Positions 59,441-64,000 of a DNA stretch of 64,000 nucleotides are shown here, in pieces. The stretch lies in NCBI GenBank assembly GCA_000165345.1, contig CM000435.1, positions 1,120,001-1,184,000 of the forward strand, given 5' to 3'. Numbering within the stretch: the stretch's first letter is position 1; each line of letters begins with the position of its first letter. The translations under genes and the position numbers were made by a program. The notes under the pieces are model-generated. The model saw nothing but the letters and a program-made list of their open reading frames with translations. It was not told the DNA's origin and ran no database searches.

Positions 59441-61111
59441 TTATAATTCGTCATGTTTGATAGATTTTTCCACCGCTTCAATTTGCTCTTGTGTGGGGAA
59501 TTCATCACTAAACTGTTCAAAGTCTGAGAAAATCGTAACAACAAGATCAGTAGCATTTGCTGGATCTATGAATGAAATCTCATTAGAATCAATACTTGTT
59601 GAGTTCATCATGTAATCCTTAATATTTATGTAACTAATTTCTTCTGCATTAAAGTGAATGGGATTACCTGAATCCTTTCTATTAAAGAAAATTATGGATG
59701 GAATAGAACTGGAGTAGAACTCATCCTTAGGAAGGTCATTTTCACTGATATCAAAGGACCCAAACTTTATTTTTGATTCAGAATTCCCAAAAGAAATCGC
59801 ATCATGTAATTTTCTAATAATCTCTTCTGTATCTATGCAAGGTTGGCAAAATGGAGTAACTAAAACAACTAGCCAGTCATTCTTTTTATCCTCTAAAACC
59901 ATTGAATTAAAGTTACTTCCAACCAGCTTGAATACTGTGTCATTATCATAATAGACAGGTATTGGCTCAGATCTTAATTTTGGCTCAACCTTATTTAATT
60001 CAATATCTTGAAGAAATTTCTTTATTGTTAAATACTCTATTGGAGTATTTGGTGGTAACAGATAAGGTCTAGATTTAGCTACAGCTACTGTTGGAAGCAT
60101 CTCAGGTTCTACTAACAAAACTGTATTTAAATGAGAAGAATGTTCTGAGGTATCTAACCATACTACTCTGTAGTTATCTGCGAATTCTTGTGAAATTTGA
60201 GTAAATAATGCAACATATGGTTTAATACTTTCTTCTCCTTTACCAGGTTCCATTGGAACAAGAAGCCAAATTAAATCATATTCTACCTCTGAATATTTTA
60301 CATAATTTCTAGATGAAATCTCACCAAATAATGGAATCTGATTAGCTTTCACAAAATCCCAAACTTCTTTTCTTTGTTTAGAAGAACCATGGAAAGGTAT
60401 TGCATTTTCATATCTCCTTAAGCAAACAATCCAAGGATCAAAACTGTTTTTCTTTAAATCATTTTTTATTGAATCTAACTCTATTCCAGATTGAAAGACA
60501 TTGATAAAGCTTTCTTTAGATAAACCAAATCCTAAGTCATCCTTTGATATTTGGTAGAATTTCCCAGAGGCTCTATTATAGTTTGCTACATCATTAAATA
60601 TACTTCTCTCAATTCCGTTCTTATCACCATAAAAGATATATAAAACATCATTCTTAAGTAATAAATTCTCAAGCTTTTCCTTATTAATCATATTCTTCTC
60701 TAATTCCAAAACAGGAAATGCTACTTGTTCCTTTAACCATTCTAATATTTCATTTTCTTCTCTTCCTCCATAATATTCTTCTGCTACCTTATTTCTAAAA
60801 AACTTCATTGTAGGATAATCATTTATTTGGTATTCTTCCAATATCTTTATATTCCTCTCTCCATTGATTTTTGCCACATTAACTTTAATATTTCCTATTT
60901 CTTCATTCAACTTTTCCAATCTTTCTATTATTGTCACACATGCTGCACAATCATCAGTATAAAAGATTACTAAACAATGTTCATTCTTAGTAATAAATTC
61001 TTGAAAGCTATCTTTATTTAACTCAGTTAAATTCCCACCTTTAACTATTGAGAAATATAAAAAAAATAAAACTGTTTGTAATGTTAGTAATATCCTCCAA
61101 CTTATTTTCAT
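59441..61111 (-). CDS. ER-resident thioredoxin-fold / protein disulfide-isomerase-like protein with HDEL retention signal and non-canonical CxxC motifs
   Basis: The signal peptide is MKISWRILLTLQTVLFFLYFSIVKG. Two thioredoxin-like segments carry CAAC (FYTDDCAACVTI) and CQPC (VTPFCQPCIDT) in place of the classical CGHC. The C-terminus ends in KHDEL. Confidence 0.85.
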   Translation of the reverse strand: MKISWRILLTLQTVLFFLYFSIVKGGNLTELNKDSFQEFITKNEHCLVIFYTDDCAACVTIIERLEKLNEEIGNIKVNVAKINGERNIKILEEYQINDYPTMKFFRNKVAEEYYGGREENEILEWLKEQVAFPVLELEKNMINKEKLENLLLKNDVLYIFYGDKNGIERSIFNDVANYNRASGKFYQISKDDLGFGLSKESFINVFQSGIELDSIKNDLKKNSFDPWIVCLRRYENAIPFHGSSKQRKEVWDFVKANQIPLFGEISSRNYVKYSEVEYDLIWLLVPMEPGKGEESIKPYVALFTQISQEFADNYRVVWLDTSEHSSHLNTVLLVEPEMLPTVAVAKSRPYLLPPNTPIEYLTIKKFLQDIELNKVEPKLRSEPIPVYYDNDTVFKLVGSNFNSMVLEDKKNDWLVVLVTPFCQPCIDTEEIIRKLHDAISFGNSESKIKFGSFDISENDLPKDEFYSSSIPSIIFFNRKDSGNPIHFNAEEISYINIKDYMMNSTSIDSNEISFIDPANATDLVVTIFSDFEQFSDEFPTQEQIEAVEKSIKHDEL

Positions 61112-61303
61112 TCTTTAAAATTACTAATTTATTCTACTTTTTCCGAATATTGTGCTTTTGCACTATATTGAAATCTTATTAAATTGTATTTTATTTTCAA
61201 ACCTTCACCCTCTTTAAACTTTACTATTAATTTTTAAAAAAATAACTTTTATTTTCACACAATTAATTATTTATTTCCCATCTTAATAAATTCAACTTAT
61301 GCA

Positions 61304-61455
61304 TTTGGCGCCCAAATAAAACGGTACCTGCACCCCACCGTTCCAATCACGAGGCGCCACATTACGGGCGGAGAACCGTGATGTTGATTTGGATTGGCGC
61401 CAAGTGCGCGACCGCCATATTTATAACAGAACGCCGGTTTGAGATGACTTGGCGG
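61304..61455. promoter_or_regulatory. 150-nt GC-rich island densely packed with GGCGCC / GCGCG / GGCGG boxes
   Basis: Direct read: TTTGGCGCCCAAA, GAGGCGCCAC, GGGCGGAG, TTGGCGCCAAGTGCGCGACCGCC, ACGCCGG, TTGGCGG. It begins about 190 nt upstream of the PDI-like gene start and is the highest local GC in the window. Confidence 0.5.
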
Positions 61456-62499
61456 TAAACTTGAGTAAGAACAACTAAATAAAATTTAAATGATAATAAA
61501 GGTAAAATTGAGAATAAAAAAAAACGGATAAAAAAAAATGAGCGAAATTAGAGTAGTCTGAATTGAGTTCGTTAATACATGATCCAACGTCTCGAGAATT
61601 GGACTTAATTAGATACAAAAATGATCCGAAAATACATTTTCGTTCCACGTGCCGGCCAACCATTTTCAAGTTGAAATAAAAAATTTCAACGAATTTCTGT
61701 TAGGTGGCGTTAGTTATCTCAACTAATACTTCTAAGAATACATTCAAAAGAATGTAGAGGCATCTCAGACCTTCCCATCCATTTATGAAAAATGTAGTTA
61801 AGTAATATTTCATATAAATAAAATATTAGCAAAACCCACTTTATTGTCTATGGAGAATCTCGAGCTTGATCTCGCCCATAGCCACTTTTTTTAAATAAAA
61901 AAAAACTCAAGTTACGAATAGTATAATATATAGTTAAATTCCATGTAAATTTAAATTTAGAAATATCAATCAAAAGCTTTATCTCGATTTTGTTACTATA
62001 TATATATATAAGCAAAAGCCGTTTGTCTGTCCCTTTTGAAGAATAAAAAGATCTATTTAAAGTTAAACATCTTCTCAAAAAGTGTTTTAAATTAGTTGAT
62101 ATAGTACTCTTTTTCTCTATCAATTGAAATAAATATAGCTCCATTGGAATATATTGAATTCCTCTAAATTAAATGTAGGTATATAATATTATTATACCAA
62201 GTATGTAGAACCCTGTGATTGACATAAACTCTACGGTAATAAAAGAGCAATGGCACCCGAGATTCGTTACTTTTCGATGAAGTTTGATCCAATAAAATAG
62301 TAAAAATATCCCAAATATTGGTCTTCGGTATCATCGGTATATCTTGAAGATATAGAGTAAACCATTGTATATATCTAAATAATAGAGGAATTTACGTTAT
62401 ATTATAAGTATCAATTAAACAGTATGATCCAATTTTCTTCTTTTATATGAATATTAAGTTATCTTGATTAATAATATTTCATCATCTGATATCCAATAC

Positions 62500-62523
62500 A
62501 TATATATATATATATATATATAT
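62500..62523. repeat. (AT)12 microsatellite
   Basis: Direct read: tatatatatatatatatatatatatg. Confidence 0.9.
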
Positions 62524-63636
62524 GATATTAATGTTTATACAAGTGGATTAAAAAAAAACTTTAAATATCCAAAATGAAAGAATCCAATTTAATAGCAAAT
62601 GCAAATACACGTTATATATGATTAGTATTAATCCAAGTATAAAGAAAATCGTCAGGTTTGCAGACATAGAGTTTCTCCACATAGATAGATTCAGTGGATT
62701 GACAGATTATTTTGCACGCTTAACTACTTAAAAAGTAGAAGATCATCATTCATTTCCAATATACCATCAATAAATATACAAATCCATATAACGTGGAATA
62801 AATGCTATAAAATGGAGTAATTAACATAGAAATAATGCTCAGTACCGCTTTGAAAATAGTAACTCTTAAGAGACCAATTTCCAAAACGATAAAAAACTCT
62901 TTTTCTACACTAAGTTTCAGTGGAAGGAGAAGAATAGAGTTGGTTAATCTTCATTGCAATATTCCAATTATACCAGATGAATAACTATGTATTTACGTAT
63001 ATTTTTAAAGTTCTTTTCCATTTAATTGCGACAAATAATATAACGTATTTAAATATATCCATTTATAAAAGGCTTAAAATATTCCCATATTTCAATACTT
63101 AATAGAGAAAAGAAGAATACCAATAACTAAAAATATCCGACTTACCTCGTATTCATAAGATATCTTTCAAACTATATGTAACAATTATTGATGGGATGAA
63201 TAAAGTAATATGTCTTATAGTTTAACAGATTTTAAGGTCTCAATTCTTTCCATGACCTCCCTTGTAATAGATGAATTCTTTTTTCTTCTTCTGCAAATAA
63301 TAGAAAGAAAACCGTTTAAAAGTCGTTCCCTCAGAGTTAAAAAGCTCGATATTATTTAATATTCTCGTCATAATAATCTGAATTGGATTTCAAAATCATC
63401 ATTGGGATAAATATTAAAGATTTAACTTTTTCTTTATATACGAATTCTTATTCACTTAGTCTATATATAAGGAGTTTCCATTTTGTATCCCATTGTAGAT
63501 TACTGAAATAAAATCCACTAATACAAAACTGAGATACAAAATGTAAAAACTGAAAATCTTTGTCCGTTTTTTCCTCAAATTCCTCAAATCTCTTAATTGA
63601 TTATTTCATTTATTTGATTATTATTTACTATTTCTC

Positions 63637-63672
<36 letters not shown>

Positions 63673-63680
63673 CCTCTAGA

Positions 63681-63730
63681 CAAACCGCCAAAATTTCGTC
63701 TCATTTTCGGGCGGGCAATTAGGGCGGTAA
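63681..63730. promoter_or_regulatory. Cluster of E2F-like boxes: CAAACCGCCAAAA ... TTTCGGGCGGGCAATTAGGGCGGTAAC
   Basis: Direct read, about 80 nt upstream of an ATG at about 63810 (MDSSHFAVVCLKKPILFSG then stop). It may be the promoter of a gene that is spliced or lies mostly beyond the window end. Confidence 0.3.
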
Positions 63731-64000
63731 CTCCATTTATTATAATATTTAGATATTAAAATTGAAATAAGCTTCTTAAGACTTGATGAAAGGGTTGGAA
63801 GCAACAGATCATGGATTCATCGCATTTTGCTGTGGTTTGTTTGAAAAAACCTATTTTGTTTTCTGGGTAGTTTAGGTTGCAGATCGTAGTGTTTGAACAG
63901 AATTCCGGGATTGAGTCCATACTGCTAGAACAAATTTCTGAGAGGTGGTCCCTGATTCCTTGAATATAGTTTTCAACGGTTGACTTTATATTATTAATTG

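Follow-up and report, generated by a model that had tools for sequence, protein, structure and literature searches.

A dense cluster of predicted E2F-like sites forms a GC-rich island in the probable promoter of a Cryptosporidium parvum PDI gene

Homotypic clusters, in which sites of the same type occur side by side, are known from animal and yeast promoters and enhancers, and classical E2F promoters carry tandem or palindromic TTTSSCGC sites. E2F-like motifs upstream of Cryptosporidium genes were reportedly noted by Bankier in 2003 and by Mullapudi in 2007. Two E2F-like motifs of C. parvum have been published, motif 3 (DTTGSCGCCH, or TGGCGCCA) and motif 4 (TTTGGCGGGAAV) (Oberstaller 2013, PMC3734150). 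The E2F-like family (TGGCGCCA/GGCGGG) is the most abundant upstream motif, with 2,379 genes, and cell redox homeostasis is among its gene-ontology terms (PMC3734150). In sporozoite ATAC-seq peaks, E2F1/E2F6 is the top motif, typically present once per peak (Xiao et al., bioRxiv 10.1101/2025.01.17.633476). According to the literature, C. parvum has two E2F and two DP proteins, and no pRB/pocket-protein partner is known in Cryptosporidium (PMC3734150). Among apicomplexan genera, E2F/DP genes are found only in Cryptosporidium, and they are functionally unvalidated, motif binding included (PMC12246861).

The locus considered here lies in a 64-kb stretch of C. parvum chromosome 7 (hereafter, the window), which has a GC content of 30.4% and belongs to a compact, intron-poor genome. 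An open reading frame of 556 aa on the minus strand (59441-61111 in the ORF list) encodes a protein disulfide isomerase (PDI) of the thioredoxin fold, as judged from its homologues and its Pfam thioredoxin domains; an N-terminal signal sequence is present, and the C-terminal KHDEL is an ER-retention signal. The protein is identical to C. parvum EAK90467.1/CPATCC_003736 and 95% identical to its C. meleagridis orthologue, and the 1389 nt upstream of the gene are identical between the window and four C. parvum assemblies. A literature search on the gene by name with a cgd7 identifier returned proteomics papers only. A GC-rich island had been predicted upstream of this ER PDI-like gene, and it is indeed located there, 193-348 nt from the PDI ATG at 61111 (approximately CP141124.1:1,222,431-1,222,586, a derived position).

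The island is non-coding and is contained in the 435-nt spacer (61112-61546) between PDI and the gene for RNase P RNA. The 3' end of the latter faces the island at a distance of ~90 nt, and two T9 runs come after it (61530-61538 and 61516-61524, minus strand). With this gene and its T-run terminators so close to the island, the PDI promoter must be within 61112-61546, of which the island is the sole motif-rich part; PDI is the presumed target of the island. The island and the PDI ATG are separated by an AT-rich block that is 84-100% identical to its counterparts in C. hominis, C. tyzzeri, C. meleagridis and chipmunk genotype I, which is above the identity of the island, and which we infer to be the PDI core promoter and 5'UTR. 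Also ~45 nt upstream of the ATG is a near-palindrome, AATATTGTGCTTTTGCACTATATT (61146-61169), which is conserved out to chipmunk genotype I; it could be an element of the core promoter or form a hairpin in the 5'UTR. The features of the spacer and its upstream border are the following, with the strand given where one is assigned.

61112-61303, minus strand: conserved AT-rich block between the island and the PDI ATG
61304-61459: the island, a cluster of E2F-like boxes of the same type, 55% GC, 6 cores per 160 nt
61304-61316: Box 1, near-palindromic and E2F-like, TTTGGCGCCCAAA, with TGCAT just before it (61300-61304)
61320-61342: inverted repeat AACGGTACC-N8-CACCGTT, with Myb-like AACGG cores and a GGTACC
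61351-61359: Box 2, GAGGCGCCA, which reads TGGCGCC on the minus strand (61352-61359)
61366-61371: Box 3, GGGCGG, a weak core of the GGCGG type, part of which is deleted in C. tyzzeri
61394-61403: Box 4, TTGGCGCCAA, a perfect 10-bp palindrome, E2F-like
61406-61417: Boxes 5 and 6, GCGCG (61406) and CCGCCA (61412), Box 6 reading TGGCGG on the minus strand
61449-61459: Box 7, TTGGCGGTAAA, the distal box, resembling TTTGGCGGGAAV
61547-61806, minus strand: RNase P RNA gene (Rfam RF00009, 58.1 bits, E = 4e-14)

Among the 150-nt stretches of the 64-kb window, the one at 61306-61455 ranks first in GC content (55.3%, with 15 CpG), confirming the predicted GC-rich island of ~150 nt. Genes for 5S rRNA are among the next most GC-rich stretches, and CpG is depleted in the window as a whole (582 observed versus 1478 expected). 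The island had been described as containing at least six E2F-like or CG-rich boxes, including two perfect or near-perfect palindromes, and this was borne out, TTGGCGCCAA being perfect and TTTGGCGCCCAAA near-perfect; GGCGCC itself is found at 61307, 61353 and 61396. The resemblance extends to the published C. parvum motifs: TTTGGCGCCC (61304-61313) and ATTGGCGCCA (61393-61402) both fit DTTGSCGCCH, and CTTGGCGGTAAA (61448-61459) matches motif 4 at 10 of 12 positions. The island also holds a CGCCGGT element. In addition, the ATACCGGTAT palindrome and the AACGGTACC...ACCGTT repeat are candidate sites of a second factor, for example a Myb protein.

For comparison with chance expectation, merged E2F-like cores (SGCGCS and GGCGG/CCGCC) were counted per 160 nt. 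The island contains 6 cores per 160 nt and any other 160-nt stretch of the 64-kb window at most 3, in line with the proposal that its box density is above that of any other promoter here. First-order Markov simulations of the window yielded a maximum of 2 cores per 160 nt, with none of 200 reaching the observed density. Dinucleotide shuffles of the island itself contained 1.24 +/- 0.94 cores, and among 5,000 of them none reached 6 cores and none had three GGCGCC. Because the island's own dinucleotide shuffles fall short, the box excess is not a by-product of GC content. When at most 1 mismatch is allowed, TTGGCGCCAA has 6 matches in the window, against 0.26 expected.

The boxes are not confined to the island. 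Nearly all E2F-like cores of the window (29 of 31) lie outside open reading frames of at least 120 aa, that is, in 23% of the window sequence, and the same boxes occur in ~ten other non-coding regions, several of which are directly upstream of ORFs. Other promoters of the window have 1-2 cores at ~80-320 nt from the ATG, so that the distance of the island, 193-348 nt, is typical. E2F-like boxes of the form GGCGGGAA(A/G) are also present between and around the 5S genes, at 2019, 2759, 2835, 3410 and 4639. In three other non-coding regions (52124, 57207 and 59340), a ATACCGGTA(T) palindrome is found within 15-50 nt of GGCGCC; this motif is absent from the motif tables of PMC3734150 and from PMC4117751, and a partner site of the E2F-like box is one possible interpretation of it. 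CCGGTA-type elements recur in the orthologous islands of C. hominis, C. ubiquitum and C. canis. The sites in question are listed below.

39099/39343, 41792/41807, 52101, 56730, 57222, 59290 and 31544/31967: other sites of the boxes in the window
2479, 3150 and 4061, plus strand: three identical 5S rRNA genes

The orthologous locus was compared in C. hominis, C. tyzzeri, C. meleagridis, chipmunk genotype I and C. ubiquitum, and further in a species represented by Logan data (SRR31860986; hereafter, the Logan species), C. canis, C. ryanae, C. bovis and C. andersoni. RNase P RNA is encoded directly upstream of PDI in every species compared. The RNase P-to-PDI spacer contains 6 cores in C. parvum, 5 in C. 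hominis, 5 in C. tyzzeri and 4 in C. meleagridis; 6 in chipmunk genotype I, 4 in C. ubiquitum, 5 in the Logan species and 5-6 in C. canis; and 1 in C. ryanae (a classical GGCGGGAAA), 1 in C. bovis and 0 in C. andersoni. The densest 160 nt of the spacer exceeds its own shuffles in C. hominis, C. tyzzeri, C. meleagridis, chipmunk genotype I, C. ubiquitum and the Logan species (P <= 0.011), bringing the genomes of the clade with a significant core excess to seven, C. parvum included. In C. canis, which has a GC-rich background, the core excess over shuffles does not reach significance (P = 0.28). The genus has undergone strong shifts in base composition, and this renders the motif-excess tests weaker in C. 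canis and the Logan species; the GC content of the intergenic region is 50% in C. canis, 43% in Logan SRR31860986 and ~31% in the C. parvum group. Thus, the multi-box state is limited to the clade extending from C. parvum to C. ubiquitum, possibly with the addition of C. canis, and the single core of C. ryanae and C. bovis and the lack of any in C. andersoni imply that the cluster is dispensable for PDI expression in the genus.

The orthologous islands resemble each other in composition and layout. The GC content within the densest 160 nt of the spacer is 0.43-0.56 in the significant orthologues, and C. meleagridis, chipmunk genotype I and C. ubiquitum display 120-nt GC peaks of 0.52-0.56 at the same distance from the ATG. 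The common order of elements is a proximal (A/T)TGGCGCC, a GGTAC element, a second SGCGCS box and a distal TGGCGG(T/G)AA. At the proximal end, C. parvum, C. hominis, C. tyzzeri and C. meleagridis have an invariant TGGCGCC core in Box 1, and the counterpart of this box, ATGGCGCCA, is the proximal one in chipmunk genotype I and C. ubiquitum. The inverted repeat at 61320-61342 is likewise invariant in the former four species, despite the fast evolution of the island, and is replaced by other GGTA(C/T)C-containing repeats in the latter two. At the distal end, Box 7 is retained in the four close species, with TGGCGG(T/G)AA being the most distal box in chipmunk genotype I and C. ubiquitum. Of the boxes in between, Box 2 is intact in C. 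tyzzeri and C. meleagridis and reads GGCGCT in C. hominis, Boxes 5 and 6 differ between C. parvum and C. hominis, and Box 4 falls within a 57-nt stretch that is absent from C. meleagridis. In the comparison with orthologous promoters, which the original prediction had proposed as a check, the content, position and order of the boxes are kept in the clade, but the sequence itself is poorly conserved.

Among the explanations offered by the original prediction, we favour an E2F/DP-type promoter, on the strength of the match to published motifs, the distance from the ATG and the persistence of the cluster in relatives. The island is probably the distal part of the PDI promoter, composed of clustered sites of predicted E2F/DP type. 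There are likely four strong and approximately three weaker predicted sites, of the TTGGCGCC(A)A and GGCGG types, accompanied by the AACGGTACC...ACCGTT repeat and the CGCCGGT element.

The pace of sequence change bears directly on this reading. In 50-nt windows across the 3-kb upstream region, the island has the lowest identity, 84-96% to C. hominis and 4-78% to C. meleagridis, and the latter species is without 57 nt of the island, the perfect palindrome among them. Furthermore, box cores and the spacers between them do not differ significantly in conservation among C. parvum, C. hominis and C. tyzzeri (88% versus 84% invariant; Fisher p = 0.48). Such a pattern, in which the sequence turns over fast while the GC content stays and the cores are no better conserved than the spacers in close species, would also be expected of a GC-rich patch that has a different promoter role or none, whether it is maintained by GC-biased gene conversion at a recombination hotspot or acts as a nucleosome-free boundary, a roadblock or an origin. 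The E2F-like boxes would then be incidental or would serve another factor. The location of the island, exactly between the terminator of a Pol III gene and a Pol II gene, would suit a patch of this kind, and binding by E2F/DP is unvalidated in the genus (PMC12246861). However, the box excess survives the dinucleotide control in C. parvum and six other species, which a purely compositional process does not predict, and the same boxes occur singly at ordinary promoters of the window that lack GC islands. We therefore regard this explanation as unlikely. A role as an origin or as a nucleosome-excluding element is not needed to account for the data, and we know of no sequence-level definition of either for Cryptosporidium. 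The argument for constraint rests instead on the retained motif content, the retained order and the presence of a 55% GC patch in intergenic DNA of ~20% GC; its retention of a high GC content through changes of sequence speaks for selection on content. It appears that the number of sites, rather than their exact positions, is under selection, and GC-richness, box type and box order outlast fast sequence turnover in the intestinal Cryptosporidium clade.

A more elaborate scenario, to which we assign little probability, starts from the same phylogenetic distribution. The island would be a lineage-specific E2F 'super-cluster', perhaps doubling as a barrier. One ancestral GGCGGGAAA-type site, which C. 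ryanae and C. bovis still have, would have expanded to 4-7 in the intestinal C. parvum clade. Selection would keep the number of sites and the GC content while the sequence evolves faster than neighbouring non-coding DNA. In a genome prone to read-through (polycistronic) transcription, the protein-bound cluster would keep the Pol II promoter of PDI apart from the Pol III-transcribed RNase P gene and from the host transcript of the snoRNAs.

The region on the other side of the island, at 61.5-64 kb, had been taken to be apparently empty. This is incorrect: the region encodes RNase P RNA and SNORD36 and includes conserved snoRNA-like blocks, the latter being at least 92% conserved in a six-species alignment. 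RNase P RNA and SNORD36 are present in C. parvum in one copy each (PMC9465071), and the two genes of the window are those single copies. The elements beyond the RNase P gene are as follows.

61811-61878, minus strand: conserved block directly upstream of the Rfam RNase P match, with a CTATGG...CCATAG inverted repeat
62203-62333, minus strand: H/ACA-like block with weak H/ACA-type Rfam matches
62643-62757, minus strand: C/D-box candidate with a TGATGA...CTGA pattern
62887-62974, minus strand: further conserved candidate block from the six-species alignment
63326-63407, minus strand: SNORD36 (Rfam)

The block at 61811-61878 is conserved like RNase P RNA itself, C. andersoni included; the 5' end of RNase P RNA probably lies ~70 nt upstream of where the Rfam alignment puts it, unless the block is a conserved Pol III promoter element. 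The annotation of GCA_035232765.1 has a spliced gene model of 71 aa on the minus strand at ~61848-63156, which is probably the snoRNA host transcript and not a protein gene. Farther upstream, at 63685-63730, there is a second, smaller E2F-like cluster that reads GTTACCGCC, CCCGCC and TTGGCGG on the minus strand. It starts ~26 nt past the upstream 456-aa gene, whose stop codon is at 63756-63758, and SNORD36 follows ~280 nt downstream of it; its box cores are kept in six species, and it is a candidate for the promoter of the snoRNA host transcript. The same region has (AT)n and (ATT)n microsatellites at 62504-62524 and 63636-63668, the (ATT)n run of C. parvum exceeding that of C. hominis and C. 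tyzzeri by 15 nt; short-read C. parvum Logan contigs are genomic and break exactly at these repeats.

These elements also bear on the suggestion that the island is a bidirectional promoter serving a transcript in the 61.5-64 kb region, for which we found no support. The RNase P and snoRNA cluster reads on the minus strand, towards the island, rather than away from it. A bidirectional promoter that also drives a spliced or non-coding plus-strand transcript into this region would be in keeping with the orientation-free nature of palindromic E2F boxes and with the annotation of over half of the regulatory ATAC peaks of C. parvum as bidirectional promoters (bioRxiv 10.1101/2025.01.17.633476), and antisense lncRNAs are reportedly common in C. 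parvum (PMC7840661). Nevertheless, all conserved elements of the 61.5-63.7 kb interval, namely, RNase P, the H/ACA-like and C/D-box blocks and SNORD36, are on the minus strand, as is the spliced gene model of one public annotation. Transcription from the island along the plus strand would yield an RNA antisense to RNase P RNA. Moreover, the snoRNA cluster has a conserved E2F-like trio of its own, on the correct upstream side. A bidirectional role of the island is thus very improbable.

Given this neighbourhood of non-coding RNA genes, the island might itself be an unannotated structured RNA gene, whether snoRNA-like, MRP-like or specific to the lineage, with two of the GGCGCC palindromes forming a terminal stem. 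RNA genes typically show high GC content in AT-rich genomes, and the predicted fold of the plus strand of the island (-59.5 kcal/mol, z = -3.46) was not equalled by any of 200 shuffles, the minus strand giving z = -1.06. The good fold may, however, be a consequence of repeated palindromic boxes that are complementary by construction, the terminal stem being Box 1 paired with Box 4. In contrast to the RNase P and snoRNA blocks, which are 92-100% conserved, the island is the least conserved 150 nt, and the 57 nt absent from C. meleagridis remove the 3' half of the terminal stem and the entire 3' hairpin. Covariation is lacking across four species: shuffles matched or beat the alignment in 379 of 500 cases for paired cells, 415 of 500 for double changes and 354 of 500 for the covariation score, and the predicted structure has 1 double change, most substitutions disrupting pairs. 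An Rfam search of the whole window at the gathering score gave no match in the island, a search of the island at E <= 10 gave an HDV-like best match (17.9 bits versus a gathering score of 44, E = 0.55), a tRNA/tmRNA scan was negative and no T-run terminator closely follows the island on either strand. We therefore reject the RNA-gene reading, which we consider exceedingly unlikely. Two further candidates were discarded: HDV-ribozyme-like and CRISPR-repeat-like Rfam matches are sub-threshold and were judged to be due to chance, and an MRP-RNA suggested by the GAGAA loop of a hairpin at 61360-61387 was dropped because C. hominis, C. tyzzeri and C. meleagridis have a different loop there.

Returning to the promoter reading, we envisage that E2F/DP dimers would bind the palindromic and half-palindromic boxes and that their occupancy would open the chromatin over the island. 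Pol II would then initiate within the AT-rich block at 61112-61303 to produce PDI mRNA. Multiple sites might provide higher occupancy or robustness, with site number setting occupancy or output, and selection on the number and kind of sites, not on their exact positions, would permit the rapid turnover of single sites seen among the orthologues.

Among the transcription-factor systems of Cryptosporidium, E2F/DP is regarded as the dominant one, and its binding sites have not been functionally validated so far. The PDI promoter, being compact, well bounded and the richest in boxes in the window, is a convenient case for testing E2F function and the relation between site number and expression. 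It also provides a small and clear example of binding-site turnover under conserved motif content across ~ten sequenced Cryptosporidium species. The island leaves our knowledge of this kind of element unchanged, as it is an extreme local instance of an ordinary kind.

Collectively, the island can be set against three described systems. With the RNA genes of the adjacent cluster (RNase P RNA and SNORD36) it shares a 2.6-kb gene-free gap, a GC content above background and a stable predicted fold of the plus strand, but unlike them it is without sequence conservation, covariation, a family match and a terminator. With the published Cryptosporidium E2F-like motifs it has in common the cores, the organism and a position a few hundred nt from the ATG; the published picture is one E2F motif per open-chromatin peak, whereas the island has 6-7 boxes in 156 nt at 55% GC. 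Like homotypic clusters, it contains several copies of a motif within ~150 bp, and the number and order of sites are kept while individual sites and spacers turn over. In contrast to classical E2F promoters, the presumed target here is an ER oxidoreductase rather than a classical S-phase gene. Thus, the island belongs to a known class of elements and is unusual only in its density and in forming a GC island.
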